Shown here: positions 1-32,000 of the stretch, piece after piece
Layout of the letters: each line of letters begins with the position of its first letter
Numbering within the stretch: position 1 is the stretch's first letter
Source: Candidatus Saccharimonadota bacterium
GTDB taxonomy: Archaea > Nanohalarchaeota > Nanosalinia > Nanosalinales > Nanosalinaceae
Direction: 5' to 3'
DNA length: 32,000 nucleotides
NCBI GenBank assembly: GCA_001761425.1
Contig: CP012986.1
Location: forward strand, 60,001 to 92,000
Notes under the pieces: model-generated
What the model saw: only the letters and a program-made list of their open reading frames with translations
Told to the model about the DNA's origin: nothing
The model's database searches: none
Position numbers and translations under genes: made by a program

Positions 1-751
1 CTTTCTCGAAGTCTCTCAGGTATTCAGTACATGTCTGGTGTCCGAGGCCTCTACTCCCGGAATGTATCATTATCACGATCTGGTTTTTTTCAAGACCGAA
101 GGCCTTGGCTTTTTCCTCTTCGAAGGTTTCTTCTACTTTCTGTACTTCGAGGAAGTGGTTTCCTGATCCGAGGCTTCCGACCTGTTTGAGGCCTCTCTTT
201 TTAGCGTCTTCCGGGACTTTTTCTGGCTTTCCTGGAAGCCTCCCATTTTCCTCGCATCTTTTGAGATCGCTTTCCTTGGCGTGGCCGTTTTGCAGCATCC
301 ATTCAGCTCCTTTTTCAAGAATTTCTTCAAGATCTTCTTTATCGACGTCGATGTAGCCTCCTTTGCCGAGTCCGCACGGTACTTTGTCGAAGAGGATATT
401 TGCGATTTGTTCCTCTTTTCCCTTGATATCGTCGTATTTGAGCGAGGTTTTGAGGACTCGTACGCCACAGTTTATGTCGTAGCCGATTCCTCCAGGACTT
501 ATTACGCCGTTTTCCATGTCTATGGCTGCGACTCCTCCGATTGGGAAGCCGTAGCCCTGGTGTCCGTCGGGCATGACGATCGAGTGTTTCTGGAGGCCTG
601 GCAGGGTTGCCACGTTTTTGATCTGTTCTAGTGTATCGTCTCCTTTGATCTCTTCCAGCAGTTCTTCGTTTGCGTAGATCCTGGCAGGTTTCTTCATCTT
701 TCCTTCTTTCGGGATCTCGTAGATATTTTCGGATACTTTGTTGAGTTCCAT
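1..751 (-). CDS. rtcB: RNA 3'-phosphate (tRNA-splicing) ligase RtcB, N-terminal ~250 codons; the gene continues beyond the window start
   Basis: Not in the ORF track because it runs off the edge. My reverse-strand translation from ATG (751..749) reads MELNKVSENIYEIPKEGKMKKPARIYANEELL..VMPDGHQGYGFPIGGVAA..GGIGYDINCGVR..GSLGSGNHFLEVQ..IHSGSRGLGHQ. These are the characteristic RtcB metal/GMP-binding motifs. Confidence 0.9.
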   Translation of the reverse strand, partial: MELNKVSENIYEIPKEGKMKKPARIYANEELLEEIKGDDTLEQIKNVATLPGLQKHSIVMPDGHQGYGFPIGGVAAIDMENGVISPGGIGYDINCGVRVLKTSLKYDDIKGKEEQIANILFDKVPCGLGKGGYIDVDKEDLEEILEKGAEWMLQNGHAKESDLKRCEENGRLPGKPEKVPEDAKKRGLKQVGSLGSGNHFLEVQKVEETFEEEKAKAFGLEKNQIVIMIHSGSRGLGHQTCTEYLRDFEK

Positions 752-919
752 ACCTGGTATTTGGCAGGGAAAGTTTACAAGTATGGTAGAGATCGCCTTT
801 TGAATCTGACTTAGTCTTCTTGCTTCTCTACCGATAGGTTTGCAGAGTTTGCCTGGAGATCCTGCGGAAAGTTTTGGACAAGTTAAAGAGAAAAATGAGA
901 GGGAAACAGTTTGGGAGGC

Positions 920-1150
920 CTAGGTTCGGCGGTCTGTCCAGTCTTCGGGCAGAAGGCCTATGATTAGTAGTATTGCTCCGAGTGTTGCTCCTGCGAGACT
1001 GAGTGACTTTATTAGAGGCCAGTCCATGTCTTCACCTGATATTACGTCTTCTGCCTGGGATGCTAGGTCCTGTTGGTCCTGTGCGTAGGTGTAGCCGAAA
1101 AGGCCTATTACTAGGAGTACTGCGCCGATTACAGCGAGTTCTGTTCTCAT
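920..1150 (-). CDS. Small membrane protein (76 aa, two hydrophobic helices), function unknown
   Basis: The ORF has two clear hydrophobic segments (AVIGAVLLVIGLFGY, LAGATLGAILLIIGLL). It is co-directional between archease and rtcB, with a GAGGT about 12 nt upstream of the ATG. Confidence 0.5.
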   Translation of the reverse strand: MRTELAVIGAVLLVIGLFGYTYAQDQQDLASQAEDVISGEDMDWPLIKSLSLAGATLGAILLIIGLLPEDWTDRRT

Positions 1151-1215
1151 TGTGGGTTCTTACCTCTGTAAACAAGAGGTAGTTAGATACAGAAACCGTT
1201 TGTTGCAGTAAGAAA

Positions 1216-1626
1216 CTATATATCCAGTACTGCCTGTAAAACCCATTTGCCGTCCTCGTGGTCGACTTTCATCTCGCTGTAGGTGGGGGCCTTGATATCG
1301 AGGAGTGCCATCTCATCGCTGATGTTGTCGACGACAATCTTCGCGGTCAAGCGGTGGCCTTCATCCGTATCCTCTATCTCAAGCTCTTCTGCGGACGAGA
1401 CGACGACACCTTCAGTATCCTGAAGGAATATCAGTTCGTCCAGGAAATCAAAAAGCAGAGGTTCATATCCCTCTGACTCGACCTCGATGTCATGGTGGTA
1501 CATGCCTCCTTCACCGCCGACGATCTCGGAGAAGGCCTCCACTGCATCGGAGAACGCCTTCTCTATGGTTTCTCCTTCTGTTCTGAACTTTTCGTCTGCC
1601 GGATGCTCAAGTATCTCGTAGCTCAC
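1216..1626 (-). CDS. Archease (RtcB activator / tRNA-modification chaperone family)
   Basis: GTG start. The N-terminus SYEILEHPADEKFRTEGETIEKAFSDAVEAF matches the archease signature (xEx[LF]EHTAD[IV]xxxxxG), and the ~136 aa length is typical. It lies in the same strand block as rtcB. Confidence 0.85.
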   Translation of the reverse strand: MSYEILEHPADEKFRTEGETIEKAFSDAVEAFSEIVGGEGGMYHHDIEVESEGYEPLLFDFLDELIFLQDTEGVVVSSAEELEIEDTDEGHRLTAKIVVDNISDEMALLDIKAPTYSEMKVDHEDGKWVLQAVLDI

Positions 1627-1655
1627 CCTGTCTCACCCGTAAGTTGAGCGATCTC

Positions 1656-1666
1656 ATAAATTTTTA
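1656..1666 (-). promoter_or_regulatory. Candidate TATA box for archease
   Basis: The reverse strand reads TAAAAATTTAT about 30 nt upstream of the GTG start at 1626. This spacing fits a leaderless or short-leader archaeal promoter. Confidence 0.35.
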
Positions 1667-1680
1667 GTCCTCGGCTCATC

Positions 1681-2316
1681 TTACTTTTCCTCAAACCTGT
1701 TTGGGAACTGCTCCTTCAAGGCCTTTTTGACCAGGCCCTGCTGTTTTCCTATACTCATCTCAGTGTTGTCGATTATCAGGTCGTACATTTCAAGGTCTTT
1801 GACGTCTATGCCGTAGTAGTTGCTGTAGCGTTCCTTGTTATCTCTGTCGCGTTTTTTGATTTTTTTCTTGACTTCTTCAACGTCTGTAATTTGTTCCTCA
1901 GCTTTTCTCTGACCTTCTTCAAGATCTCTGGCAGTCCTGCGCGCTCTTTCCTCGAGATCAGCCGTCACATAGATCCTGAAATCACTGTATGTTCCAAGCA
2001 CCCAGGAAGAAATCCTTGACTCGATCACACAGTCTTTTTCAAGGCCTTTCTCCAGCGTCCGTTTGTCTACTTTGATATCGGTCTGTTTGTCTGCCTGTTC
2101 ACTCAGTTCTTCTACTGTAAGGCCTTTTTCATCCGCCAGGTCGCGGAAGAAGTCTCCTGCAGAGTAATTCGGTATATCCAGTGTTTCTGCGATGAAGTAT
2201 GCCAGAGTTCCTTTTCCTGCGCCTGAAGGCCCGTCTATGGTTATGACGAGATCTGATTTTTTCTCGTGATCTCCGTGGAAATCCTGTATTTTACTTTCCA
2301 TGAAGGATTCTTCCAT
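1681..2316 (-). CDS. cmk: Cytidylate (CMP) kinase, archaeal type
   Basis: P-loop ITIDGPSGAGKGT, then SAGDFFRDLADEKGL and a C-terminal YDLIIDNT block. These are colinear with archaeal Cmk proteins. The exact start (M1 versus M6) is uncertain. Confidence 0.8.
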   Translation of the reverse strand: MEESFMESKIQDFHGDHEKKSDLVITIDGPSGAGKGTLAYFIAETLDIPNYSAGDFFRDLADEKGLTVEELSEQADKQTDIKVDKRTLEKGLEKDCVIESRISSWVLGTYSDFRIYVTADLEERARRTARDLEEGQRKAEEQITDVEEVKKKIKKRDRDNKERYSNYYGIDVKDLEMYDLIIDNTEMSIGKQQGLVKKALKEQFPNRFEEK

Positions 2317-2921: not shown

Positions 2922-3470
2922 TTACCGGGAAACATACACTGAATTCTTAGCAGAATACCTGTAATCATGTTGAAGGCCTTCAGAGATACCTATACGGGAA
3001 CTTTCCTCGACCTCTTCTCCCAGGTTTCCTTCCTCAATCCTGAAACTGCCTTCCAGAAGATCCGTTCTATTATCCGCTTTATCTATGTTAAGGGCTTCTG
3101 TAAGCTTTCCAGGCCCATCGCCGAGACTTCCTTCGTCTTCAAGACCTCTCCGCTCTTTCATGACATCGAGGCCTTTCACAGGTTTGACAGCTCTTATCAG
3201 TACAGCTCCAACCTCGTTTTCTTCATGGGCTACGATGTTGAACATGTTATGTATGCCGTAGCTGACATAGACATAGGCCTTGCCAGGTTCTTCGTACATC
3301 GGCGCGTTTCTCTCTGTCTTTCCGTTCCTTGCGTGTGAAGCCGGATCTTTTTCCCCGAGATAGGCCTCAGTTTCCACTATATCAGCTTCGACACCTTCTT
3401 TGATTATTTTACAGCCTAGAAGGCCTTTTGCTACTTTTCTCGGATCCCTGGAGAAGAATTCATATTTCAT
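2922..3470 (-). CDS. mpg: DNA-3-methyladenine glycosylase (AAG/MPG family)
   Basis: IVETEAYLGEKDPASHARNGKTERNAPMYEEPGKAYVYVSYGIHNMFNIV matches the conserved ETEAY..DPASHA..G.T.RN..M...G..YVY..YG core of the MPG family. Confidence 0.85.
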   Translation of the reverse strand: MKYEFFSRDPRKVAKGLLGCKIIKEGVEADIVETEAYLGEKDPASHARNGKTERNAPMYEEPGKAYVYVSYGIHNMFNIVAHEENEVGAVLIRAVKPVKGLDVMKERRGLEDEGSLGDGPGKLTEALNIDKADNRTDLLEGSFRIEEGNLGEEVEESSRIGISEGLQHDYRYSAKNSVYVSR

Positions 3471-3555
3471 AGAATATCGTAGGATAATATGTAGGTTCGC
3501 GGAATGAAGGATTCGAAAACGATTCCTTCTTGAGCACCTTTCTCATGCGAGAAGG

Positions 3556-3573
3556 TCGCGGAGCCCGGGATTT
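3556..3573. repeat. 18-nt exact direct copy of the 3' end of tRNA-Asp (tcgcggagcccgggattt), 111 bp from the original at 3667..3684
   Basis: Direct comparison of the two stretches gives 18/18 identity. Patchy similarity continues for about 15 more nt. Confidence 0.9.
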
Positions 3574-3667
3574 CTACCCCGAACTTCTGAAAGTTCGATC
3601 ATTAGTGCCGGGCTATGCCCGGCGACCACCGGAGGTGGTCATTGCGTATCGATCGAGCGTAACCAAT

Positions 3668-3742
3668 CGCGGAGCCCGGGATTTGAACCCGGGTCTTCAC
3701 CGTGACAGGGTGAAATGATGGGCCAGACTACACCAGCTCCGC
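3668..3742 (-). tRNA. tRNA-Asp (anticodon GUC)
   Basis: Manual cloverleaf on the reverse strand: acceptor GCGGAGC/GCTCCGC, anticodon stem TCACC/GGTGA with loop CTGTCAC, T arm CCGGG-TTCAAAT-CCCGG, discriminator G. CCA is not encoded. Confidence 0.9.
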
Positions 3743-3769
3743 TTTCGTATCCTAGGATACTACCGGGAA

Positions 3770-3778
3770 TTTTTTAAA
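3770..3778 (-). promoter_or_regulatory. Candidate TATA box for tRNA-Asp
   Basis: The reverse strand reads TTTAAAAAA about 30-36 nt upstream of the tRNA 5' end at 3742. Confidence 0.4.
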
Positions 3779-4525
3779 CTAAAAGGTTCCTAGGAGCCTG
3801 AGACCTACGAGTACAAGCAGTGTTAGTGAGGCCTTTTCGATTGTTTTCTGAGGTAGTTTTTGTGCAAGCATGTCTCCGGTTTTAACCGCTACTATGCCGG
3901 TTAGTCCGAGGAGTGTTGATAGGAGGATTGTGTCTGTCCCTGTGTAGAGGCCTGTTTTCTGTGCTATTGGCACTCTGATGAAGGATGCTGAGAGGATTGT
4001 CAGTGCTATCATGGACAGGAATTTGTCTCTGGAGAGTTCTAGTTCCTTGAAGTACGCGACTACCGGGACGCCTACGTTTGATGATCCGAAGACGAGGCCT
4101 GAGAGAATGCCGAGGACCGGCTCCAGTTTCGGGTTTTCCACGCAGAATTTTTTGATGTCGGAAAAATTTTCTGCGATACGCGGTATTCTTGAGGCTACGA
4201 AGAGGAGGACTAGGAGGCCTACTGCTTTTTTGAGCAGTGTCTGTGGCATGTAGTCTATCAGGAGCATTCCTGCTGTTACTCCGAAGAATACTCCGGTTAT
4301 GTATGATTTGAATCTTTCGAGACAGGCCTTTACCTCTTTTATTGATAGTTTAGCTGTTAGTTCGATGTTTGCCAGTATGACAGGTATTATCATGAGGGCT
4401 ACGGCTTCCTGAGGCGGCATGATTAATGTGAGAAGTGAGGTTGATACGAGTGCGTAGCCGAAGCCGTTGAGGCCTTTTATCAGGCCTCCGAGGACGATGG
4501 CTGTGGTTATCAGGAGGAGATTCAT
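3779..4525 (-). CDS. TauE/SafE (DUF81, TSUP) family membrane transporter
   Basis: 248 aa with about 8 hydrophobic helices. The N-terminal GGLIKGLNGFGYALVSTSLL and internal GSSNVGVPVVAYF repeat pattern are typical of DUF81 anion exporters. Confidence 0.8.
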   Translation of the reverse strand: MNLLLITTAIVLGGLIKGLNGFGYALVSTSLLTLIMPPQEAVALMIIPVILANIELTAKLSIKEVKACLERFKSYITGVFFGVTAGMLLIDYMPQTLLKKAVGLLVLLFVASRIPRIAENFSDIKKFCVENPKLEPVLGILSGLVFGSSNVGVPVVAYFKELELSRDKFLSMIALTILSASFIRVPIAQKTGLYTGTDTILLSTLLGLTGIVAVKTGDMLAQKLPQKTIEKASLTLLVLVGLRLLGTF

Positions 4526-4824
4526 CTGTTTCTGTCTATTTTTCTTCCCAGGATCTGTTTTTCTCTGTCGATGGCTGTTGCGATAAGAAGCTCTGCGAGT
4601 TCTCTACCTCTCTTCTCTGGAAGGCCTTTTTCCCTGTAGAGTTTTTCGAACTCCTGTTTAACCTCTTTTTCTCTTTCCTCGTCCACGATCTGCATATCGT
4701 TCTCTTCCTTGTACTCTGCAACTTTGACTACTATATCCATTCTTTCTGCGATGAGTTCCACGATTTCGTTGTTGAGAGAGTCCAGGTCTTCTCTGATCTG
4801 TTCAAGGTCGAGTTCTTCACTCAT
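4522..4824 (-). CDS. Chorismate mutase, AroQ (type II) class, monofunctional
   Basis: LEQIREDLDSLNNEIVELIAERMDIVVKVAEYKEENDMQIVDEEREKEV matches the AroQ helix-1/helix-2 pattern (R..ID.lD..ll.LlaeR......K......d..RE). The stop overlaps the TauE start by 4 nt. Confidence 0.8.
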   Translation of the reverse strand: MSEELDLEQIREDLDSLNNEIVELIAERMDIVVKVAEYKEENDMQIVDEEREKEVKQEFEKLYREKGLPEKRGRELAELLIATAIDREKQILGRKIDRNR

Positions 4825-5220
4825 AACTTCCCTATACAGCTTCTATTACTAAATGAGTTGCGGTGAAAAAAGCTTGGAACCAGACTTCCTTCCCGCCATA
4901 GCAGAAATCTAGGCGCCTCATTGCCGACTGTAAAACAGCAGGCACGGTAGTTAAAGGCCTTCACCGCATTTACAGGATCAGCGGTAAAGAAACATTTTCT
5001 GGAGCTATTTTTTAACGTATCACAGGCAGAAAGATTTCTGAAAACGGTACAGACATACAACTGAGCGTTTCCGGCGTAGCGGAAGATTCTGAAGTCGATT
5101 AAATTGTCCGAAAAGATGGAAGAGGCCTTATTTTTGAGGGAGAAACTGTTACTTAAAACTGGGAACTCCGTTGTCTAACGGGAGGAATGTATCGGCTCCC
5201 GGTATTTAGAGGAATAATTT

Positions 5221-6423
5221 ATGGGCGAAAAATACGTTATAATCGGAGAAGGTATAGCAGGGGCGACAGCAGCGGAAGAAATCAGAGAAAAAAACGAAGA
5301 AGCAGAGATACATGTTTTCACGGATGAGAACGAGCCTCTGTATAACAGGATCATGCTGAAAAATTACATGAAAGGCTCTCTGCCCAAACAGTATACCAAG
5401 GTCCATGATGAGAACTGGTACGAGTCCAGGGACATCGAACTCAGTCTCCAGACACGGGTAACAGATGTAGATAGGGAAAGGAAAACTATCGAGACCGAAG
5501 AAGGAGAGGCCTTTGAGTACGATACCTTGCTGGTCGCTGCTGGCGGTAGCCCTCGCGGGTTCCCTGCTGATGAAGGATACAGTAACGTTCACTACATGTG
5601 GAGTATTGAGAAAGCCGAGGCGATCAAAAAAGCTGCCGAGGAGTCTGAAGAGGCCGTTGTCATCGGTGGAGGCCTTTTGGGGATTGATCTGGCTGTAGCC
5701 TTTGCGGAGAACGGTGCAGACACACATTATCTGATCAGAGGTTCTAACTGGTGGAGCAGAGGCCTTGATGAGGAAGGAGCGGGTATAATACATGATAAGC
5801 TGGAGGATCTCGGTGTTAACGTTGTAACGGATATTGAGGCCTCAGAGTTCGTCGCCGAGGATGGGGAAGTTACGAAAGTTGTCTCTGAAGGCGGTGAGGA
5901 GTTTTCCTGTGATGACGTGGCGATTGCGATCGGTCAGACTCCGAATTCTGAGATTGTTGACGTGGAAAAGACTGATGGAGGCCTTATACAGGTTGATGAG
6001 TATCTGAGGACTTCTGATGAGGATATCTATGCTGCGGGTAACATGGTTGAGTATTACTCTCCTGTCTTCGAGGAAAGGACTGTGAAGGGTTCATGGGACC
6101 ACTCGGATGCTATGGGAGAAAGAGCAGGTAGAAACATGGCAGCGAAAAGTAGTGAGGAGCGGAAGGCCTTTGATTACGTTAATACTTACGGTGTTGGCCA
6201 TTTCACGACGCAGTTCTTGGCTATAGGTGACTGGACGGGAGAACCTGTCTCGAAGAAGTATGATGAGAATCATTACCGCAGACTTTACTTCAAGGATGAT
6301 AGAATTGTTGGCGCGGTGATGATCGGCTTTACGAGGGGACAGGAACGGCTCAAAGACATGATCAAGGACAGGGAAGAGTTTGACAATAGAGAGGCCTTGC
6401 TTGAGAAAAGTTACTGGGAGTGA
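5221..6423 (+). CDS. FAD-dependent pyridine nucleotide-disulfide oxidoreductase (class I/II, NADH-oxidase / ferredoxin-reductase-like)
   Basis: N-terminal FAD motif VIIGEGIAGATAA, a second Rossmann motif AVVIGGGLLGIDLA, and the GD motif IYAAGNM. Confidence 0.85.
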   Translation: MGEKYVIIGEGIAGATAAEEIREKNEEAEIHVFTDENEPLYNRIMLKNYMKGSLPKQYTKVHDENWYESRDIELSLQTRVTDVDRERKTIETEEGEAFEYDTLLVAAGGSPRGFPADEGYSNVHYMWSIEKAEAIKKAAEESEEAVVIGGGLLGIDLAVAFAENGADTHYLIRGSNWWSRGLDEEGAGIIHDKLEDLGVNVVTDIEASEFVAEDGEVTKVVSEGGEEFSCDDVAIAIGQTPNSEIVDVEKTDGGLIQVDEYLRTSDEDIYAAGNMVEYYSPVFEERTVKGSWDHSDAMGERAGRNMAAKSSEERKAFDYVNTYGVGHFTTQFLAIGDWTGEPVSKKYDENHYRRLYFKDDRIVGAVMIGFTRGQERLKDMIKDREEFDNREALLEKSYWE

Positions 6424-6425
6424 CT

Positions 6426-6749
6426 TTACATCCAGGTTAGGTTTTCCTCCAGTCTCTCTTTTTCCTCCAGGTATTCGGATTCGATGTATTCCCAGGCCTC
6501 TATACTTGACTGGGACCATTCTGTTCTGATTTTTTCTCTTTCTATACCGTGGAACTGGAGGCCTTGATCTGTAAGGAAGACGTTGTAGTCTTCAGTCTGG
6601 AGGAAGACATCGTAACGTGTGTTTTCATCGAAATCAGGTTTTACTCTTGGCAGGTAGCTTTCAGAATTTTCTATGATCTCTTCCAGGTACTGTTTTACGT
6701 CCTGCAGATCTTTTGAGGGACCAGAATCGAGAGAGGCCTGAAAACTCAT
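6426..6749 (-). CDS. Hypothetical acidic protein (107 aa)
   Basis: The ORF has an acidic composition like the confident genes and fills an otherwise empty slot. I recognise no motif. Confidence 0.45.
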   Translation of the reverse strand: MSFQASLDSGPSKDLQDVKQYLEEIIENSESYLPRVKPDFDENTRYDVFLQTEDYNVFLTDQGLQFHGIEREKIRTEWSQSSIEAWEYIESEYLEEKERLEENLTWM

Positions 6750-6804
6750 GTATACATATTGTTCAGGCTCTGATGAAAACTACTGTTGCAGTGAAAGTCA
6801 ACCT

Positions 6805-7815
6805 TTACTCGTGTTCGATTTCGACTTCGTCGAGAACGTCTAGTGCTCTTGTGGACACGAAAGAGAGGTCCTGCCAGTCCTTTGTCATCCTTGGACATGC
6901 ACAGTTTACATAGATATCAATATTGTATCCCTTGTAATCTGACTCGAAGATGCGGTCTTCTACGAACAGGAAAACTTCTTTGCCGTGTCTTTCAAGCTTT
7001 TCCTTTGCGATCTCCGCTGCTCTCATATAGTTCTGCCCTTTCTTGGATGAAGTTACTACGCCCCAGCGTTTCTTGTCCTTGTGCTTGATAACACGGGCGT
7101 ACTCTGCCTGCATCTCGTCATCCAGCGAGTTAGGTGGTTCGATCCAGATATGCCTTTCGTAAGGATCGACTACGTACACTTTTTTCCCGGCTTCCGAGAC
7201 CTGTGAAGGATGGAACTCTCCAGAACCCAGGAAAACAAATGCATCAACTTTATGTGAAATGTTATGTGCGGCGCCTGCATCGCATCCCAGGACCTGGCCC
7301 GGCTCCGTCGTCCTTAGGCCTTTCTTTCCATCTACGACGTTGTATCCTTTGCTCTCCAGGAACTCTCTTGCCTGATCAGCACGGTCCATGTACTGGGTTA
7401 CACCGACAAGGCCTACAGTCTGTTCCTCAATCTTGTTGTAATCCTCTTCAAGGACTCCCATAAGATCTCTGTCTTCTCTGTACGGAAGATAGTACACGTT
7501 TACATCGTTCATCTCCGCTCCCTCAGGATGAAGGAAACGTGTATGCCCTACGTGGACTAAAGCATCTGCACCCATCCTCTCCGCTTTTTCATTGGCGATA
7601 CCGCATGCTCCGAACGAAGAGGCCCCGATCATAACCGGTTCGATACCATGTTCCTTTAAATCCGATCCGAATTCGATCAGCTCGTCTTTGATACCGTCAG
7701 GACCCTGAAGGCCTACCTTATCATAGTCCTGGGCCTTCAGCTCTTCCATTATCTCCTCAAATGTTTCGTAGTTGTACTGACTGCGTTCTTCCTGTTCGGC
7801 TTTTTGATCTGTCAT
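6805..7815 (-). CDS. dph2: Diphthamide biosynthesis enzyme Dph2 (2-(3-amino-3-carboxypropyl)histidine synthase, radical SAM-type)
   Basis: The pattern VGLQGPDGIK..SSFGACGI..GADALVHVGHT..VLGCDAGAA..NCACPRM carries the three conserved Cys regions of archaeal Dph2. The ~336 aa length is typical. Confidence 0.85.
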   Translation of the reverse strand: MTDQKAEQEERSQYNYETFEEIMEELKAQDYDKVGLQGPDGIKDELIEFGSDLKEHGIEPVMIGASSFGACGIANEKAERMGADALVHVGHTRFLHPEGAEMNDVNVYYLPYREDRDLMGVLEEDYNKIEEQTVGLVGVTQYMDRADQAREFLESKGYNVVDGKKGLRTTEPGQVLGCDAGAAHNISHKVDAFVFLGSGEFHPSQVSEAGKKVYVVDPYERHIWIEPPNSLDDEMQAEYARVIKHKDKKRWGVVTSSKKGQNYMRAAEIAKEKLERHGKEVFLFVEDRIFESDYKGYNIDIYVNCACPRMTKDWQDLSFVSTRALDVLDEVEIEHE

Positions 7816-9474: not shown

Positions 9475-9571
9475 ACATAGTTTTAGGCCTTGAACCGATT
9501 AAAATCTTCCGGAATCCAGGAAATCCTGTTTACTGGTTGATAGAAAAATTCAGAGAATTTTTCGGGAGTTC

Positions 9572-10099
9572 TTATCTGTCTCTGTCGATCTTGACTCTGC
9601 ATTTGACAGGCATTTTGTGTGTGGCTCTTTCCAAGGCTTTTCTTGCGACCTGGATGTCTCCTTCGTCTACGTCGATTCTGTAGACTTTCTGCTGTGCGTC
9701 GACAAGTGCTGCGCGTCCGATCGGTCGTCCGAATGGTTTACGCATACCTTCGTAGTAACGGTCTGCCTGTGCAACACCGGCTAGCGGGTGGTATCTGAGA
9801 ACGTGGTGTGGGTAAGGCAGAATCCTGAGGTAATAGTCTTCTTCCGGGTCTAGCTCCTTGGATAGGTAGGAGTTCGCTGCGACACGTCCTGCCTCGAGTG
9901 CTTCGCTCCTGACTCCGCAGTCTTCTTCGACTACGAGCTTGATTGAAGCGTCGAACTCTGTATTCCTTGCACCCTGGTCGAACTGTGTCACTCTCGGAGC
10001 TGGAGCTCCTTTAATGTAATTGTCCTTCTTTTTCTGACTCTGCCGGGTGTAAGGCTGGTTCGGCTGCTCTCTGTAAATCCTTGCAGGACGATCTCCCAT
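9572..10099 (-). CDS. rpl10e: Large-subunit ribosomal protein L10e (uL16)
   Basis: RPARIYREQPNQPYTRQSQKKKDNYIKGAPAPRVTQFDQG and the downstream RILPYPHHVLRYHP..AGVAQADR..GMRKPFGRP are the conserved L10e blocks. Confidence 0.92.
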   Translation of the reverse strand: MGDRPARIYREQPNQPYTRQSQKKKDNYIKGAPAPRVTQFDQGARNTEFDASIKLVVEEDCGVRSEALEAGRVAANSYLSKELDPEEDYYLRILPYPHHVLRYHPLAGVAQADRYYEGMRKPFGRPIGRAALVDAQQKVYRIDVDEGDIQVARKALERATHKMPVKCRVKIDRDR

Positions 10100-10134
10100 A
10101 TTATTACCTCGTGAACTAACCCGCGGACTTAAAT

Positions 10135-10142
10135 TTTATATA
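10135..10142 (-). promoter_or_regulatory. Candidate TATA box for rpl10e
   Basis: The reverse strand reads TATATAAA 36-43 nt upstream of the ATG (10099). A GAGGT Shine-Dalgarno-like element (10106..10110) lies 7-11 nt upstream of the start. Confidence 0.4.
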
Positions 10143-10149
10143 GGGTATG

Positions 10150-10527
10150 TTATAGATAGCCTATACTGTCGGCAAGATCGGAGTCAGGAAAATGCTGTTC
10201 TATCTCTTGCTCGCTCAGCTTCTGGAGATACTCCATCCTATTATCGGCAGGTCTGCTCTCATTATGAGAGACCAAATACACAGTAGAGGCAAAATCGAAG
10301 TGGTCAAAACCACTTGAAGAAAGTTGATCTAAGCCTAGTTCGGCTGCCTTCGCCTTGAAATTATCGATATCGGACCTGTAGTCTCCGTCAGTGGCACTTT
10401 CAAGAGCGTAATCAGTTACGGTCTGGTAGAATTCAGACTTGTTCTCAAGATACTCAGAGGCCTCAACTATATTTTCAACCTGTTCAAAGGCCTTATCTGA
10501 ATGCCTGAACGTTGCTTTTGCCATCAA
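10150..10527 (-). CDS. Hypothetical acidic protein (125 aa)
   Basis: The ORF has proteome-typical acidic composition and is divergent from the sugar operon. I recognise no motif. Confidence 0.45.
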   Translation of the reverse strand: MMAKATFRHSDKAFEQVENIVEASEYLENKSEFYQTVTDYALESATDGDYRSDIDNFKAKAAELGLDQLSSSGFDHFDFASTVYLVSHNESRPADNRMEYLQKLSEQEIEQHFPDSDLADSIGYL

Positions 10528-15089: not shown

Positions 15090-15578
15090 ATGAAGATAGG
15101 AATAGACTTTGACAGAGTTCTTTTCGATACAGACAGGTTCAACGAATACATGAAAAAAGAGACAGGCCTCAAACACGTCGAAGAAAATGTATACGATGAA
15201 AGAGGATGCTACTCGCCAGAAAAGCACGCAGAGGCCTCAGGAATCGATGTAAAAGAAGTTTACGACGCTGTCAAGGATCTTGAGAGCTTTGTCTACGATG
15301 ACATAGATCTACTGGAAGATCTTGAAAGCCATACCCTGGTGATAGTGACCAGAGGCGAGGAAAAATATCAGAAGGCCAAGATAGAGGCCTCAGGTATCGG
15401 AGACATCTTCGAGGAAATCTATGTGGTCCAGGAAGGATCCAAAGACGTTGACGGCCTGGAGTTTCTAGTCGATGACCGTGAAGAAGAAATCCACCGAGCC
15501 GGAATTCCAGGCCTTGTTCTAAACCGTGAAGAACACGGCATGAAACACGTCGTGAAGTTCGCAGGCGGTAAAAAATGA
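15090..15578 (+). CDS. HAD-superfamily-like hydrolase/phosphatase (small, 162 aa)
   Basis: The N-terminal KIGIDFDRVLFDT fits the HAD motif I (DxDx[TV]). A late acidic motif FLVDDRE is consistent with motif IV. The assignment is tentative. Confidence 0.5.
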   Translation: MKIGIDFDRVLFDTDRFNEYMKKETGLKHVEENVYDERGCYSPEKHAEASGIDVKEVYDAVKDLESFVYDDIDLLEDLESHTLVIVTRGEEKYQKAKIEASGIGDIFEEIYVVQEGSKDVDGLEFLVDDREEEIHRAGIPGLVLNREEHGMKHVVKFAGGKK

Positions 15579-16879
15579 GGCCCGAAAAAGTTTTCAAACG
15601 CTATGACATAAGAGGAAGATTCGGAGACGAGATAGATAAAGAATTCGCCGAAATACTGGGCAAAGCACTCGGAACCTTCACAAAAAGAAACTACGGCAAC
15701 AGAGCAGTAGTCTCAAAAGATAACAAAGGAAGCTCCAACCTTCTGAAAGATCCTCTGATACAAGGCCTCCGCTCAACAGGCATAAAAGTTATAGATGTCG
15801 GTACAGGGCCTACAGATTACACTGCTTTCTGCGGGAAAGAACACGGCGCCGTTTCAGTCCAGATTACTTCTTCGCATATGCCACTGGACTTCAACGGCTT
15901 CAAACTGATGTATCCAGAAGGAAACGGCTTTGTAAACGAAGATATGGACAGAGTCAAAGATCTTTTTAGAGACAGAGACCTGGATTCAGGCGAAGGAGGC
16001 CTGAACGAAATGGAGGATACCATGAAGCAGAGGTACAGAGGCCGGATCAGGATCCACGGCTCAAAGCTCTGTACACAGACTGTAGACCGGACAGTAGCAG
16101 TCGATACCATGGGAGGAGCGACCTCAGGCCTTCTACCGGAGCTTCTGGAGCATATAGGGGCGGATGTGATTGATATCACTGAGGAGGACAGGCCTTACAG
16201 AGATCCTCCTGACCCGAAGCCCGAGCAGTTACAGGAGCTGAAAAAGCGTGTGGATGAGGGAGAAGCGGATCTAGGCCTTGCTACGGATATGGACGGCGAC
16301 AGGATCACAGCTTACACGAACAGGTTCCTGACCGGAGATGAAATCTTCGGAATCATGGCTCAGGCAGTAAACGATGACGTGGTTGCTTCCATCGATACTT
16401 CGGAGGCCCTGGAAGATCTTATGGATGACAGAGGTAAAGAAATCCATTATACCCGTGTCGGAGATCCCTTTGTCATGGATAAAGCTATTGAAGAAGACGT
16501 AGGCCTTGCAGGTGAGCCTAACGGGCATTACTCTGTACTTGATTTCGTGCCGTACAACTCCGGTATCCTGACCGCTCTAGTCCTCACCGGGACCGATATA
16601 GAGGAGGCACTGGACCGTATGCCGAAGTATCACGTGAAAAGGTTCAGTTTCGAGGTCGACAATAAAGAGAAAGCGATGAAAGAAATCAAGGCCTCCGTTG
16701 AGGAAAGTTACGATATTATTTCAGAGGTTGACGGTGTAAAGTTCGAGACCGAGCACTGTGATGTTGTTGTGAGGCCTTCCGGTTCCTCTCCGAAGGTCCG
16801 TGTGATGGCCGAGTCTGAGAGGCGTTCATGGCTGAACGATGAGCTACCTGAGATCAGGGAGAAGGTCCGGAAACCATAA
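15575..16879 (+). CDS. Phosphohexomutase (phosphoglucosamine / phosphomanno / phosphoglucomutase family)
   Basis: Active-site loop ITSSHMPLDFNGFK (T[AS]SHNP..yNG.K), metal loop GLATDMDGDR, sugar loop GEPNGH, and phosphate loop VVRPSGSSPKVRVMAE. ATGA overlap with the upstream HAD gene. Confidence 0.9.
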   Translation: MRPEKVFKRYDIRGRFGDEIDKEFAEILGKALGTFTKRNYGNRAVVSKDNKGSSNLLKDPLIQGLRSTGIKVIDVGTGPTDYTAFCGKEHGAVSVQITSSHMPLDFNGFKLMYPEGNGFVNEDMDRVKDLFRDRDLDSGEGGLNEMEDTMKQRYRGRIRIHGSKLCTQTVDRTVAVDTMGGATSGLLPELLEHIGADVIDITEEDRPYRDPPDPKPEQLQELKKRVDEGEADLGLATDMDGDRITAYTNRFLTGDEIFGIMAQAVNDDVVASIDTSEALEDLMDDRGKEIHYTRVGDPFVMDKAIEEDVGLAGEPNGHYSVLDFVPYNSGILTALVLTGTDIEEALDRMPKYHVKRFSFEVDNKEKAMKEIKASVEESYDIISEVDGVKFETEHCDVVVRPSGSSPKVRVMAESERRSWLNDELPEIREKVRKP

Positions 16880-18754: not shown

Positions 18755-18775
18755 AAGGCCCTCCTCAGAGGCCTT
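18755..18775. terminator. Stem-loop AAGGCC-ctcctcaga-GGCCTT between convergent mbf1 and DUF457 genes
   Basis: 6-bp inverted repeat flanked by an A-run and a T-run. Weak, inferred bidirectional terminator. Confidence 0.25.
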
Positions 18776-19270: not shown

Positions 19271-20164
19271 TTAGAGCTGGGATGGCTTAAATTTTCCATT
19301 GCATACTGCGCGCAGGCCCTGGATTACAGATTTCTCTCCGAGGTCGCACAGTTCTATCTGTGGAGGGCTGTTGACTGATTCTTCTTTTACCTCTTTTTTC
19401 AGAGGTTCAAGTATCATTTCTGTATGGTTCAGGGGTACTGCCCCGCCAAAGACTATTTTCTCCGGGTTAAAGACGTTTGCTATATTGGTTACGCCTATAG
19501 CGTTGGCTTCATGCATCTTCGAGATCACTTTCTCCGCTGTAGAGTCATAGCTTTTGTAGGATTTGAAGATCTCCAGTGCATCGTCGTATTCTGCGCTGAA
19601 AAGCTCTTCTGCCATCTCTGGAAGATTTTCTCCAGACGAGTAGGCCTCCCAGTGAGCTGTCCCTCCGCATCCGCATTCAGGGCCTTCCTCGTTTATCTTC
19701 ATGTGACCTACTTCACCAAAGTTTCCGTTCCAGGCCTCAATAACCCTGCCTTCAAGTATGACTCCTGCTCCGATCCCTGAGCTTATAGTCACGTAGACTA
19801 GGTTTTCCGCGTCGTGATCTCCGTAGTGGTATTCGCCGAGAACTGCTGCAGTACCGTCATTGAGTATCGTTATCTTTCCAAAGTCCCTGAAGGCCTCTCC
19901 AAGATCTACTTTTTCAAGGCCTGATCTGGAGAAGTTTGGAGGCCTGAAAGTTTTTTCCTCCCTGTCTATAGGTCCTGCTGCGGCGACGGCAACTTTCTCC
20001 AGCTGTTCTCTGCTGTAATCTGTATCTTTCAGTGCTTCATCGACTTTTCCGTCGACATCTTTCAGAAATTTCTCTGTACCGTATTTTTCTATCACCTGGA
20101 AATCGCCGTTTCCTATGCCCAGGAGCGTGTTCGTGCCTCCTATATCGACGCAGAGAAAAACCAT
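19271..20164 (-). CDS. ROK-family sugar kinase (glucokinase-like)
   Basis: I place the start at the internal ATG (20164..20162), which gives MVFLCVDIGGTNTLLG (ATP motif DIGGT). The ROK zinc motif GHMKINEEGPECGCGGTAHWEAYSSG and the GGAV motif are present. The track's 87-codon N-terminal extension is non-acidic and overlaps the divergent PHP gene. Confidence 0.85.
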   Translation of the reverse strand: MVFLCVDIGGTNTLLGIGNGDFQVIEKYGTEKFLKDVDGKVDEALKDTDYSREQLEKVAVAAAGPIDREEKTFRPPNFSRSGLEKVDLGEAFRDFGKITILNDGTAAVLGEYHYGDHDAENLVYVTISSGIGAGVILEGRVIEAWNGNFGEVGHMKINEEGPECGCGGTAHWEAYSSGENLPEMAEELFSAEYDDALEIFKSYKSYDSTAEKVISKMHEANAIGVTNIANVFNPEKIVFGGAVPLNHTEMILEPLKKEVKEESVNSPPQIELCDLGEKSVIQGLRAVCNGKFKPSQL

Positions 20165-20185
20165 AATACCTTGTATTACCGCCGG

Positions 20186-20192
20186 TTTAAAT
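20186..20192 (+). promoter_or_regulatory. Candidate TATA box for the PHP-domain gene
   Basis: TTTAAAT lies 25-31 nt upstream of the ATG at 20217, in the 52-bp divergent spacer. Confidence 0.35.
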
Positions 20193-20216
20193 CTCTGACT
20201 AAAAAACTGTAAAGAC

Positions 20217-21086
20217 ATGAAAGAGGGAAAAGCCGACCTACACATGCACACGAATGCCAGCGACGGCACAGACACGCTTGAGGAACGCATAGAGGACGCA
20301 AAAAGAAAAGGCCTCGACGCAATCGCAGTAACAGACCATGATAAAGTAAACGAAGGCCTTGAACAGAGAAGTTTTACAGCAGAAAACGGTGTAGAAGTTA
20401 TAACCGGTGCAGAGATCAAATGCAAGGTGAAAGGACGGAAGATAGAGATCCTGGGCTACTTCATAGATCCAGAAGACGAAAAGATGAAGGAAATGTTCCA
20501 GGAACTGTCCAGAAGAAGAGAAAAACGCATGGAAAAGTTTGTAGAAAATCTGAACCAGGTTCACGGCCTAGGCCTTGAACTAGAAGATGTTGTGGAAAGA
20601 GCTGACGGCAACGTGGGAAGGCCTCACCTCGCCAGAGAACTGAAAGAAAGAGAAATCGTCGGTTCGACTCAGGAGGCCTTTGACAGGTTTATCGGCTCCG
20701 AACAGGATGAATACGTCCCTGTGGAAAAAATTGAGGCTGGAAAAGTGATTGAGACAGTTCATGAAAACGGAGGTGTTACAAGTCTCGCTCATCCTGGCAG
20801 AAGCCTGGGAGAAGATGAAGTCAGGGAGATAATCCATGACCTGACTGGGAAAGGCCTTGATGCGCTCGAAGTAGATTACACCTACAGGGAGAGGAGAGGC
20901 CTTAACTCGTACAGGGTTAATTTCGGGGTGGAAAAGGCCTCGGAACTGGCGGATAGATTTGATCTTCTGAGGACGGGTGGAAGCGACTGTCATGGTTCAC
21001 GGTCGGACAAGTATTTCCTCGGGGAGGTAAGTATACCGTACAGCCGTGTTGAAACTCTGCGGGATGCAGCGAGTTTCTCACGGTGA
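20217..21086 (+). CDS. PHP-domain metal-dependent phosphoesterase (TrpH/YciV-like)
   Basis: The ADLHMHTNASDGT, AIAVTDHD, LAHPGR and GGSDCHG motifs are the four PHP metal-ligand blocks. Confidence 0.85.
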   Translation: MKEGKADLHMHTNASDGTDTLEERIEDAKRKGLDAIAVTDHDKVNEGLEQRSFTAENGVEVITGAEIKCKVKGRKIEILGYFIDPEDEKMKEMFQELSRRREKRMEKFVENLNQVHGLGLELEDVVERADGNVGRPHLARELKEREIVGSTQEAFDRFIGSEQDEYVPVEKIEAGKVIETVHENGGVTSLAHPGRSLGEDEVREIIHDLTGKGLDALEVDYTYRERRGLNSYRVNFGVEKASELADRFDLLRTGGSDCHGSRSDKYFLGEVSIPYSRVETLRDAASFSR

Positions 21087-23884: not shown

Positions 23885-24060
23885 GAAAAAGGTCTTAATA
23901 AACTGTGGAAAAAAGCTGTAGAAAGATTTTTTGTTCAAAGAAATAAACTCAGCGTTCGGGGGAGGTCACGAAAATCTGGGAGAAGATTTTCTGAAGCAGA
24001 AATTCTTGTAAAGAATTTCAAGATTTGAACCAGAATCCCGGCGAAGAATTAAAGTTTGAG

Positions 24061-24144
24061 CGTCGGGGGCGGGATTTGAACCCGCGTGGGCTCGCGCCCA
24101 GTAGCTTAGCAAGCTACCGCAATACCAGACTATGCGACCCCGAC
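24061..24144 (-). tRNA. tRNA-Ser (anticodon GCU) with long variable arm
   Basis: Manual cloverleaf: acceptor GTCGGGG/CCCCGAC, D stem GCA/TGC, anticodon stem GTAGC/GCTAC with loop TTGCTAA, variable arm TGGGCGCGAGCCCAC, T arm GCGGG-TTCAAAT-CCCGC, discriminator G. Confidence 0.9.
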
Positions 24145-25727: not shown

Positions 25728-25940
25728 CTATCCGCCTGCGATTACGTCAAATACTCTGATCCTGTCCTCGTCTTCTAACTCATGTCTACCTGAGATGATC
25801 GTCCCGTTCCTTGAGACCAGAACCTCCTGCCTCTCGATACCCTCGTCATCAAGAAGCTCGTCCACCATAAGGCCTTGATCGACTTCGATCTCTTTCTCCT
25901 CTTCTTTATCCAGGTCGTCTCTTACGAGTGTGATCCTGAT
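25728..25940 (-). CDS. Ubiquitin-like beta-grasp protein of the ThiS/MoaD/SAMP type ending in Gly-Gly; start codon uncertain (ATC at 25940 or ATG at 25868)
   Basis: Not in the ORF track. The open frame reads (I)RITLVRDDLDKEEEKEIEVDQGLMVDELLDDEGIERQEVLVSRNGTIISGRHELEDEDRIRVFDVIAGG-stop. This matches the ThiS/SAMP2 layout (V.V....E.e....t..dLl........v.vNG..v.....L.dgD.i.v...v.GG). A perfect GGAGGTGA lies 6 nt upstream of the ATC. Confidence 0.6.
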   Translation of the reverse strand: MRITLVRDDLDKEEEKEIEVDQGLMVDELLDDEGIERQEVLVSRNGTIISGRHELEDEDRIRVFDVIAGG

Positions 25941-26236
25941 CCGGGATCACCTCCTTCATCTATCCTTTTCTCATATTTCTCCAGAGCTTCGTTGAAGGCC
26001 TCTTCGGCATCTATGTCAAGATCGTCCGCGACAGCAAACAGAGAAAAAAGTACGTCTCCTATCTCGTCCTTTTTTACTTCAAGTTCCTCTTCTCTCTCGC
26101 CATACTCCGCAGTTTTTGTCGCGTCTTTGGCGACTTCACCGACCTCTGAGACAAGGTCAAGGACTCTGAACGCAGTTGTTCCGCCCAGCTCATGTTCTTC
26201 CATAAACTCAGCTACCTGATCTTGATGTCTCTTCAT
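25922..26236 (-). CDS. mazG: MazG-type nucleoside triphosphate pyrophosphohydrolase (single-domain)
   Basis: LVSEVGEVAKD...(18)...EIGDVLFSLFAVADDLDID fits the EXXE(12-28)EXXD MazG motif. The ATG directly abuts the ogg stop, and a GAGGT lies 7 nt upstream. Confidence 0.85.
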   Translation of the reverse strand: MKRHQDQVAEFMEEHELGGTTAFRVLDLVSEVGEVAKDATKTAEYGEREEELEVKKDEIGDVLFSLFAVADDLDIDAEEAFNEALEKYEKRIDEGGDPGSGSHS

Positions 26237-27097
26237 CTATTCTACCTCTATTATTCCGTTTCTTGCTGCGTGAAAGATATATTCCTGGGCGTAACCTGAG
26301 TGCTCTCCGAAATACTCTCTCATATTCCGGGAGAGTTGTTCGTAGTCATCGCTGTAAAGCTCAGGGTACTGCTTTTTCAGAGCTTTTTCCGCCCATGTAT
26401 CGATCGGATAGGCCTCAAGCTGCTCCTGGGAAAAAAGCAGGACGCAGTCCGCGACTTTATCGCCTACGCCGTAAAGCTCTTTCATCTTCCGGCGGGCTTC
26501 CTCGTAATCCCCCGGGAAATCAGGCTCAAAGCCATCGTTCAGGATCTTCATACTCTCTATAATGTACTTGGCACGGTAGCCGACACCAAGATCTCTCAGA
26601 TCTTCTTCAGAGGCGTGAGATAGTTGTTCAAGCGTCGGAAACCGCAGAAGCTCATGTCCATCGAACTCTACAGTTTCTCCGAACTCCTCTGCTATTTTAT
26701 TGTGCATTTCTTTGATACGGGGAATCCTCATCTGCGGAGAACAAAGGTAGCTTACCAGGCACGGGAAAAAATCGTCCTGAACCACTCTCAGGCCCCATAT
26801 CTCGTCTTTAGCTTTCTCAAGGTTTTCATCCTCTGGAAATTTATCGAAAATTTGTTCGAGATTGTGGTTCAGGCCTAAGGCCTTTTCTACAGTTTTTTTA
26901 TCTGTCTCTGTCTTGACATGCAGTTTTCCATCTTCTTTTTCCTCTATTACTATCGCTTTTCCGTTCTTGAAGCTGTAGAAATGTGTTTTTCCGTCTTCAT
27001 ACAGTTTTCCGTCTATCCTGTGCCAGCAGAAGGTCTGGCCGCAGGTCATGGTCTCTTCCAGGTCAAAGTTTTCTGGAGAGATTTCGAATTCTTCCAT
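26237..27097 (-). CDS. ogg: 8-oxoguanine DNA glycosylase / AP lyase, Ogg1-type (HhH-GPD superfamily)
   Basis: N-terminal OGG_N motif TCGQTFCWH. HhH-GPD motif LYGVGDKVADCVLLFS carries the catalytic Lys, and the downstream PIDTW carries the catalytic Asp. Confidence 0.85.
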   Translation of the reverse strand: MEEFEISPENFDLEETMTCGQTFCWHRIDGKLYEDGKTHFYSFKNGKAIVIEEKEDGKLHVKTETDKKTVEKALGLNHNLEQIFDKFPEDENLEKAKDEIWGLRVVQDDFFPCLVSYLCSPQMRIPRIKEMHNKIAEEFGETVEFDGHELLRFPTLEQLSHASEEDLRDLGVGYRAKYIIESMKILNDGFEPDFPGDYEEARRKMKELYGVGDKVADCVLLFSQEQLEAYPIDTWAEKALKKQYPELYSDDYEQLSRNMREYFGEHSGYAQEYIFHAARNGIIEVE

Positions 27098-31321: not shown

Positions 31322-31348
31322 TATACTTATTGGGGTTTGATACTAGAG

Positions 31349-31357
31349 TTTTTATAA
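31349..31357 (-). promoter_or_regulatory. Candidate TATA box for aglB
   Basis: The reverse strand reads TTATAAAAA 28-36 nt upstream of the aglB ATG (31321), in a 92-bp divergent spacer. Confidence 0.35.
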
Positions 31358-31382
31358 TCTCTTCCATTTTAACGGCGGAGTG

Positions 31383-31389
31383 TTTAAAA
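31383..31389 (+). promoter_or_regulatory. Candidate TATA box for secF
   Basis: TTTAAAA lies 25-31 nt upstream of the GTG at 31414. Confidence 0.35.
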
Positions 31390-31413
31390 GGATTCCAATA
31401 CACGCATTTTTCT

Positions 31414-32000
31414 GTGAACGCTGAAAAGTACTTTGACAGAGTTTACGAGGATTTTGACAGGTACCTCTGGATTCCTGTAGCTATGATCTTACTGGCTTCC
31501 GGCGTTCTAGGGTTTAATTATGCTACAACCGGAGAGTTCCTGGCAAAAGGGACAGATTTCTCGGGAGGATCCGAGATCCAGTTCGATATCCAGGGAGATT
31601 TCCAGAACTCTGAAATCGAACAGGCCTTCGCCGAAGCAGGCAGAACCCAGACAGATGTTCTTACACAGACCACGGGCAACCAGACACTTACTATCGTAGA
31701 GCTTCCTCCGCCAACCATCGATGAAGAGGAAGCTGCAAATATATTAGGCGATGCAGGGTATGAGGCAGAGGTGATAGGCCTCAGGACGATCTCGGCTGCT
31801 GTTTCCAGCCAGTTCTTCCTCCAGGCACAGATTGCTTTCGTTCTCGCGTTCACCACGATGAGTCTTGTAATTTTCATTGCGTTCAAAGATCTTACTCCTT
31901 CACTAGCTGTTATAATAGCTGCTTTCGGCGACATCGTATTCGCCTCAGCAGGTATGGCAGTGCTGGGAATACCATTAACTCTTGGTTCGCTTGCAGCATT
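31414..32000 (+). CDS. secF: Protein-export membrane protein SecF (N-terminal ~195 codons; continues past the window end)
   Basis: Not in the ORF track because it runs off the edge. My translation from the GTG is MNAEKYFDRVYEDFDRYLWIPVAMILLASGVLGFNYATTGEFLAKGTDFSGGSEIQF...ISAAVSSQFFLQAQIAFVLAFTTMSLVIFIAFKDLTPSLAVIIAAFGDIVFASAGMAVLGIPLTLGSLAA. The order TM1, G.DF.GG, ~90-aa loop, then SecDF TM block matches SecF. Confidence 0.8.
   Translation, partial: MNAEKYFDRVYEDFDRYLWIPVAMILLASGVLGFNYATTGEFLAKGTDFSGGSEIQFDIQGDFQNSEIEQAFAEAGRTQTDVLTQTTGNQTLTIVELPPPTIDEEEAANILGDAGYEAEVIGLRTISAAVSSQFFLQAQIAFVLAFTTMSLVIFIAFKDLTPSLAVIIAAFGDIVFASAGMAVLGIPLTLGSLAA

Follow-up and report, generated by a model that had tools for sequence, protein, structure and literature searches.

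AGGCCT, a highly iterated palindrome in lineages of nanohaloarchaea

The palindromic hexamer AGGCCT has exactly 147 copies in the 32,000 bases of contig CP012986.1 analysed here (positions 60,001 to 92,000; hereafter, the window), with a mean spacing of 217 bp and 2.8% of all bases lying within a copy. It is an archaeal counterpart of the highly iterated palindromes (HIPs) of cyanobacteria, with which it shares five descriptive features. The window corresponds to bases 58,963-90,962 of the JGI contig 3300010222 Ga0136257_100001 (1,125,078 bp) and was separately assembled in Logan SRR2630167. Its genes are archaeal (AglB/STT3, Dph2, and Ribosomal_L16/L10e in Pfam scans), its Dph2 protein shares 92% identity with that of a metagenome-assembled genome labelled Candidatus Nanohalobium, and Dph2 together with the neighbouring genes places the window in the Nanohaloarchaea, that is, outside the cyanobacteria that define the hosts of the HIP family.

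At the GC content of the window (46.9%), base composition predicts 6.8 copies of AGGCCT, and dinucleotide-preserving shuffles (n = 100) gave 8.3 ± 2.9, with a maximum of 16. Markov models of orders 2 and 3 raise the expectation to 26.8 and 60, respectively; the 138 copies expected at order 4 are unusable as a null, since that model is built on pentamers that AGGCCT itself creates. The motif ranks first among all 4096 hexamers, and the runner-up among the palindromic ones, AGATCT, has 25 copies. An earlier reading of the letters by a model (the first-pass annotation) had counted about 147 copies by hand and put the excess at roughly 20-fold, both of which the exact count reproduces, although its GC estimate of about 45% was somewhat low.

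The excess is that of the complete hexamer and not of its core. GGCC tetramers number 216, of which 147 lie within AGGCCT, and the other 69 are mainly variants with one flank changed (AGGCCC/GGGCCT, 30; AGGCCA/TGGCCT, 11; AGGCCG/CGGCCT, 11), much as the few dozen variants seen by eye had suggested. GGCC with both flanks wrong is depleted (17 observed versus about 54 expected).

Neither genes nor codons account for these numbers. Using the JGI gene calls on the source contig, 132 copies fall within coding sequences (CDSs), 11 are intergenic, and 4 straddle gene ends; the ratio of observed to expected copies (O/E) is the same in both compartments (21 in CDSs, 24 in spacers). All three reading frames are used, as had been claimed, with 79 coding copies read as nnA-GGC-CTn, 44 as nAG-GCC-Tnn, and 9 as AGG-CCT. 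When synonymous codons were permuted within each gene, which preserves both the protein and the motif-inflated codon usage, 1000 trials yielded 24.1 ± 4.1 copies (maximum, 38) against 126 observed. This result and the equal enrichment of spacers exclude a codon or dipeptide preference; the codon shuffle was a check that the first-pass annotation had itself proposed. The AGGCCT excess is, therefore, a DNA-level effect that is independent of coding, as the earlier reading had held.

The bases next to the motif carry a weak preference. Over all copies, position -1 reads A in 58, G in 51, C in 22, and T in 16, and position +1 reads T in 73, C in 35, G in 23, and A in 16, a mirror-symmetric bias that weakly extends the site to R-AGGCCT-Y; the same extension had been proposed from the first 30 copies and holds symmetrically throughout. 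It is visible even at the synonymous third base of leucine codons, which is T or C in 79% of those inside the motif versus 51% elsewhere. At positions -8 to -2 and +2 to +8, the base frequencies are near background, so the information ends at R-AGGCCT-Y. Because the flanks are random beyond ±1, the copies are independent, as previously suggested, and a dispersed repeat or mobile element family, such as repetitive extragenic palindromes (REP) or miniature inverted-repeat transposable elements (MITE), is ruled out. A symmetric purine/pyrimidine preference outside the hexamer is as expected of a dimeric DNA-recognising protein.

The effect on the encoded proteins is large. Of the 173 sites in the window where the peptide would permit AGGCCT, 128 (74%) are occupied, and 85 of 99 Gly-Leu dicodons read GGCCTN. 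In motif-rich relatives of the window (described later), the occupancy of compatible sites is 0.58-0.76, as against 0.07-0.14 in the motif-poor clades nested among them and 0.03 elsewhere. Motif-compatible peptides are themselves commoner in rich loci (14-22 per 1000 codons) than in poor ones (9-11), and the poor clades nested among rich ones have no excess of them. Gly-Leu reaches 9.2-11.5 per 1000 codons in the window and loci L010 and L011 versus 4.1-7.1 in poor loci, with equal overall glycine and leucine content; over the pooled clades, the Gly-Leu excess is smaller (5.5-10.3 per 1000 codons), with none in L109. The motif force has reshaped the proteins, doubling the frequency of motif-compatible peptides.

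The features of the window that bear on the motif are as follows.

1..32000, no strand: the AGGCCT set, 147 independent copies, weakly R-AGGCCT-Y
3668..3742, minus strand: tRNA-Asp, without AGGCCT
4825..5220, no strand: a true intergenic spacer with two copies, at 4955 and 5123
6805..7815, minus strand: the Dph2 gene, with 3 copies; the anchor for fetching related loci
9491..10457, no strand: the longest motif-free stretch, 973 bp between copies, spanning rpl10e (Ribosomal_L16) at 9572-10099
15575..16879, plus strand: the phosphohexomutase gene, with 8 copies across three reading frames
18755..18775, plus strand: a hairpin, AAGGCC-(9 nt)-GGCCTT, followed by a T-run, between convergent genes, with a full copy at 18769-18774 and a half copy
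24060..24144, minus strand: tRNA-Ser, without AGGCCT
26871..26883, no strand: the closest AGGCCT pair, 7 bp apart

Several of these had been singled out in the first-pass annotation. The phosphohexomutase gene does carry its copies in several frames, and neither the two tRNAs nor rpl10e contains one. The candidate terminator stem at 18755-18775 fared less well; the hairpin is present, but its stability is only marginal (-13.5 kcal/mol, z = -1.86).

To follow the motif beyond the window, Dph2 neighbourhoods were taken from GTDB species representatives and metagenomes (loci designated here by L numbers). Within the clade of the window (73-80% nucleotide identity), motif sites were retained in 59-79% of cases, compared with 17-29% for background hexamers in the same frames, and whole-locus alignments gave 0.59-0.79 for the motif versus 0.18-0.25 for background. 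AGGCCT sites are thus kept 3-4 times better than background hexamers. The sister locus L001 has no AGGCCT at positions corresponding to window sites. Individual genes follow the same course: the three Dph2 copies are all conserved in the window, L084, L085, and L083, two of the three are found in L086, and none in L001. In the phosphohexomutase gene of motif-rich L086, five of the eight window copies are retained, three are now other hexamers, and a ninth site holds a copy that the window lacks; motif-poor L001 has no copy at any of those sites. The rpl10e genes of the close relatives L084 and L085 hold one AGGCCT where the window has AAGCCT. With both lineage-specific gains and losses seen in the window clade, the motif force is still active; sites are turning over and new ones are arising.

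Copies are also spaced slightly more evenly than random (pooled coefficient of variation, CV, 0.83). Pooling 11 motif-rich loci, gaps shorter than 25 bp were observed 10 times against 50 expected. With protein constraint controlled, the occupancy of a compatible site depended on the distance to the next copy, being 0.33 with a copy 6-24 bp away, 0.55 with one 25-49 bp away, and about 0.7 at greater distances. Three readings fit this short-range repulsion, namely, local saturation of a repair-bias ratchet, the footprint of a protein, or the avoidance of hairpins between self-complementary copies.

Thirteen nanohaloarchaeal loci are motif-rich, with 2.4-5.1 AGGCCT per kb and an O/E of 10-19, and AGGCCT is the top hexamer in all of them (in L083, apart from a run of N). 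More than 25 further nanohaloarchaeal loci have 0-0.6 per kb. Among about 90 archaeal loci of sufficient length, no other palindromic hexamer exceeded an O/E of about 7. A Dph2 tree and a six-protein neighbour-joining (NJ) tree, both with bootstrap, recover four rich clades, each with a bootstrap of 100: the window with L084 and L086 (joined by L085 and L083 in the Dph2 tree); L010 with L113 and L114; L089 with L011, in which the weakly enriched L088 is nested; and L109 with L110. Rich and poor clades are interleaved, the poor clade of L105-L108, L116, and L111 being sister to L010, L113, and L114 (bootstrap 100). Monophyly of all rich loci received 0% in the Dph2 bootstrap. Because the deep nodes are weak (bootstrap 25-57), the trees allow either a single origin followed by several losses or several separate gains. 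The same metagenomes contain both rich and poor lineages, so the environment is not the cause.

One locus should be considered separately. L088 lies inside a rich clade (bootstrap 100) and has 0.58 AGGCCT per kb, with the AGGCC half-site in 26 of its 33 GGCC; the force that maintains the motif may have been lost in this lineage. Its other genes, at 51-57% amino-acid identity, are too diverged for site-by-site comparison.

The core of the motif is avoided in other lineages. GGCC has an O/E of 0.09-0.3 in the nanohaloarchaeal loci L004, L006, L112, L105, and L108, in L056 (Methanosarcinales), and in L073 and L074 (Bathyarchaeia); in L056, there are 0 GGCC versus 22 expected. Such avoidance is classically left by exposure to GGCC-specific restriction and stands in contrast to the AGGCCT excess of sister lineages. 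Its strength in the sisters of motif-rich lineages shows enzymes that recognise GGCC to be an active selective factor among nanohaloarchaea.

Two further palindromes were seen in the survey. TCCGGA is the second most over-represented palindrome in L113 (16 observed versus 3.7 expected), L114 (19 versus 4.2), L010 (10 versus 3.5), and L110 (10 versus 2.5) and could represent another iterated palindrome of lesser strength. In several loci of Micrarchaeota and related DPANN (L020, L022, and L018; e.g., 20 in 11 kb), AAGCTT outnumbers every other palindromic hexamer, but at only about 2-2.6 times the dinucleotide expectation.

A scan of IMG/VR for three spaced AGGCCT returned, among the matches listed, only tandem-repeat or collagen-like regions and GC-rich chance matches, and is uninformative on viruses of these hosts. 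In three of these contigs (L218 at 1433-1821, with 12 copies at a 31-bp period; L124 at 4273-4580; and L151 at 3120-6989), the motif sits in tandem repeats or a collagen-like repetitive open reading frame (ORF), and there is no genome-wide enrichment. We found no earlier report of an AGGCCT excess in nanohaloarchaea or other archaea in the full-text literature searched.

The nature of the force can be narrowed by asking which one-letter variants of the motif pay for its abundance. We compared 158 kb of motif-rich nanohaloarchaeal DNA (GC 0.448) with 293 kb of motif-poor DNA (GC 0.444). AGGCCT itself has 19.5 times the density in the rich set that it has in the poor one. For each of the six inner one-letter variants, the rich-to-poor density ratio lies within 0.90-1.18, transitions and transversions alike, so that the ratio of motif to variant is shifted by a uniform 16-22-fold for the inner variants. 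Variants that differ at an outer letter are 1.2-3.1 times as dense in rich DNA as in poor, GGGCCT/AGGCCC most of all. Such a pattern is compatible with the complete site being selected, or with conversion that is biased whatever the type of mismatch.

HIP1 (GCGATCGC) of cyanobacteria is over-represented 15-300-fold and conserved between genomes, and its function is unresolved (PMC5861425). Alternate HIPs occur sporadically, each accompanied by a methyltransferase whose specificity matches, and one-letter deviations fall mainly at the ends; such observations led Elhai to propose a methylation-dependent repair ratchet for HIPs (PMC4390886). AGGCCT resembles HIP1 in being a GC-rich palindrome and a strongly over-represented top oligomer, in occurring in all frames of genes and in spacers with codon usage as no explanation, in having its sites conserved between genomes above background, and in concentrating its one-letter deviations at the first and last letters (PMC4390886 for HIP1). 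It differs in having six letters (weakly eight) where HIP1 has eight, in its host (a DPANN archaeon and not a cyanobacterium), in its density (3.7-4.6 per kb versus about 0.5-2.5 per kb for HIPs), and in its scattered distribution over close lineages, HIP1 being found in nearly all of its phylum. Methyltransferases associated with HIP1 are known (GATC, CGATCG), whereas the AGGCCT counterpart is only putative. The HIP family also shows a 10-90 kb periodicity; in a 32-kb window, only the repulsion below 50 bp and a mild over-dispersion are measurable.

A further parallel is with the alternate HIPs, GGCGCC in Calothrix PCC 7103 (O/E about 15-20), rCCGGy in Oscillatoria PCC 10802, and GCsGC in Cyanothece PCC 7822. 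Like these, AGGCCT is a palindrome on the scale of a hexamer, sporadic and lineage-specific, and stands as an outlier among palindromes in the archaeal loci surveyed. Unlike them, it is common to whole clades and not to single strains, and the matching methyltransferase identified in each cyanobacterial genome has here only a putative equivalent.

Our preferred explanation, which we put forward tentatively, is that AGGCCT is a HIP-like palindrome upheld by a recognition system that can be gained and lost, most likely a putative orphan methyltransferase that acts on AGGCCT and tilts repair or gene conversion towards the motif whatever the type of mismatch. A sequence-specific force on DNA would drive the motif near saturation genome-wide in particular nanohaloarchaeal lineages, and its determinant would be a gene open to gain and loss; the candidate is an orphan methyltransferase that recognises AGGCCT, as StuI does, or an enzyme that recognises GGCC and prefers certain flanks. 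The methyl mark would skew the choice of strand during mismatch repair or gene conversion. Mutations completing a site would then be retained and those destroying one reverted, with indifference to the type of mismatch, as in Elhai's HIP ratchet, and the resulting density would be a by-product of that ratchet and no proof that each copy is useful. We count in favour of this explanation that the patchy pattern of rich and poor lineages parallels that of the sporadic alternate HIPs, which co-occur with matching methyltransferases, and that local saturation, with low occupancy near another copy, is what the ratchet model predicts. The near-saturated excess at the DNA level with its reshaping of proteins, the conservation of sites, the uniform shift against inner variants, the symmetric flanks, and the avoidance of GGCC in sister lineages are counted on the same side.

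Enzymes with the same core are known. GGCC methylation systems include M.Ssp6803II of Synechocystis (GGm4CC, with N4-methylcytosine, m4C), SuaI of Sulfolobus acidocaldarius (GGCC, m4C), and the HaeIII and StuI specificities; none is reported to yield a 20-fold AGGCCT excess. GGCC is described as frequent and methylated in Synechocystis (PMC6560206), and there is one archaeal species in which restriction-modification at GGCC has persisted (PMC10609329). The same survey of archaeal restriction-modification lists no AGGCCT system for DPANN archaea (PMC10609329).

Several points weigh against an explanation by methylation and should be kept in mind. Methylation of AGGCCT is a prediction, and the sole published nanohaloarchaeal methylome, from a different genus, shows another motif, GDGCHC (PMC10266531). 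Pfam scans of the 30 window proteins and the JGI Pfam calls for the flank yielded no methyltransferase, Vsr/Mig-type gene, or nuclease in the window or in its flank of about 12.5 kb (about 3.2 kb upstream and 9.3 kb downstream, for a total of about 45 kb read of the 1.1-Mb source contig). Nor did the signatures PCQxFS, [DNS]PP[YFW], and FxGxGG reveal a methyltransferase or nuclease among all ORFs of 57 nanohaloarchaeal loci; the SPPY/F matches belong to the PPDK_N-domain protein beside Dph2. The model presupposes a methyl-directed repair pathway in nanohaloarchaea. Its repulsion should extend over about 1 kb in Elhai's version, far beyond the roughly 50 bp seen here, which could instead reflect the avoidance of hairpins between self-complementary copies. 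Finally, Xu et al. attribute the conservation of HIP1 sites to functional selection and not to biased repair (PMC5861425), and the conservation data for AGGCCT are open to the same reading.

A more far-reaching form of this explanation is possible, although we regard it with some doubt. A gain-and-loss element, for example, an orphan AGGCCT methyltransferase combined with archaeal repair or gene conversion, would have entered several lineages, or arisen once and been lost repeatedly. The outcome would be a genome-wide sequence drive that has rewritten about 3% of bases, saturated three quarters of the sites, and caused thousands of amino-acid changes, with x-Gly-Leu and [K/E]-Ala-x doubled, while the individual copies would bring no benefit.

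The alternative that survives best, though we think it rather unlikely, is that AGGCCT is the selected binding site of an abundant, lineage-specific dimeric DNA-binding protein (a chromatin, condensation, or segregation factor), with each copy under natural selection. A palindrome with a symmetric purine/pyrimidine extension, inner mismatches that are equally disfavoured (as in a binding consensus), and the conservation of sites would all suit such a protein, as would the even spacing and short-range repulsion, which are compatible with a footprint or with redundancy. Xu et al. favour a role in nucleoid structure for HIP1 (PMC5861425). Against this, selection would be needed on about 5000 sites per 1.1-Mb genome and would have to override protein sequence (an odds shift of about 75 at synonymous sites), which is hard for symbionts with small populations. 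Sister lineages in the same brine do without the motif and even avoid GGCC, and Pfam scans produced no candidate protein in or near the window.

Less likely still is an uptake or recombination signal, in which DNA bearing AGGCCT would be preferentially imported or recombined and the motif would spread by molecular drive, like the DNA uptake sequences (DUS) and uptake signal sequences (USS) of Neisseria and the Pasteurellaceae. Those sequences share with AGGCCT a genome-wide, frame-independent excess, a bias independent of mismatch type, intrusion into proteins (which USS are known to reshape), and fairly even spacing, and nanohaloarchaea rely on imported biomolecules. The differences are considerable, however. 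DUS and USS are 9-12 bp long, non-palindromic, present at about one per kb, and tied to a known competence receptor, whereas AGGCCT is a shorter and less specific palindrome of 6-8 bp that ends at R-AGGCCT-Y and is 4-5 times as dense. No competence or uptake genes were seen in the roughly 45 kb of source contig, which does not permit a search for a receptor; natural transformation with sequence preference is not known in archaea, and the patchy distribution would demand that a receptor be gained repeatedly.

The first-pass annotation had offered four mechanisms. On three of them, an uptake-type sequence, the site of a chromatin or segregation protein, and a self/non-self mark, the data are neutral. 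The fourth was a methylation site with a bias like that of very short patch (VSP) repair. In such a mechanism, a 5-methylcytosine (m5C) methyltransferase acting on AGGCCT would be accompanied by a Vsr/Mig-type enzyme that turns T:G into C:G and thereby converts AGGTCT or AGGCTT into AGGCCT. There is an archaeal precedent, since the T/G glycosylase Mig.Mth accompanies the GGCC-methylating MthTI system, and in the window alone AAGCCT/AGGCTT is low (O/E 0.52). That hint is gone in the larger comparison of 158 kb with 293 kb, where the C-to-T neighbours are not selectively depleted (AGGTCT/AGACCT, 0.91; AGGCTT/AAGCCT, 0.92) and do not stand apart from the transversion neighbours (0.90-1.18). That transitions and transversions are equally disfavoured argues against a T:G-specific mechanism, and a pump restricted to T:G cannot account for an equal shift against transversion variants. 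The best-known relative, Dcm/Vsr of Escherichia coli (CCWGG up, CTWGG/CTAG down), is likewise a methylation-linked repair bias that alters oligomer abundance, but its effect is about 1.3- to 2-fold and not 20-fold, and the depletion of transition neighbours expected of it is not seen for AGGCCT. The only HhH-GPD protein of the window is of the OGG type, with an orthologue in motif-poor L002. We therefore consider this mechanism improbable.

Trivial causes (preferred codons or dipeptides, a dispersed repeat or mobile element, or an assembly or adapter artefact) could at best cite the 59% of coding copies that encode x-Gly-Leu and are negligible in view of the codon shuffle, equal spacer enrichment, use of three frames, random flanks, and occurrence of the same trait in independent assemblies (JGI, ENA, NCBI, and Logan).

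Some observations on the annotation of the window itself should be recorded. The ORF at 281-631 (plus strand) is spurious; in this region (1-751), JGI has RtcB on the minus strand across the start of the window. The ROK kinase starts at 20164; a start at the upstream TTG (20425) would make it run into the PHP-domain gene (region 19271-20425). Genes for DNA damage and nucleotide sanitising comprise a methylpurine glycosylase (2922-3470), a NUDIX protein (2342-2863), a MazG-like protein (25922-26236), and the OGG-type HhH-GPD glycosylase (26237-27097); none of these showed a link to AGGCCT.

Highly iterated palindromes have been unsolved for some 30 years, and opinion is divided on HIP1, which may serve a function or may arise as a by-product of methylation-directed repair. 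AGGCCT is a second, independent instance, in another domain of life, and its density of one copy per 220 bp is, to our knowledge, the highest of any iterated palindrome. It also provides a natural experiment, with well-supported rich clades beside poor and sometimes GGCC-avoiding sisters in the same samples, and with nearly complete genomes on both sides. For hypersaline metagenomes, AGGCCT density is a very strong marker for binning and lineage. If a gain-and-loss drive is at work, the coexistence of rich and poor sister clades in shared brines would make this the first case where simple comparative genomics could reveal what determines a highly iterated palindrome. A DNA-level force that visibly reshapes the reduced proteome of a symbiont matters for models of protein evolution, for codon usage, and for phylogenetics in DPANN archaea.

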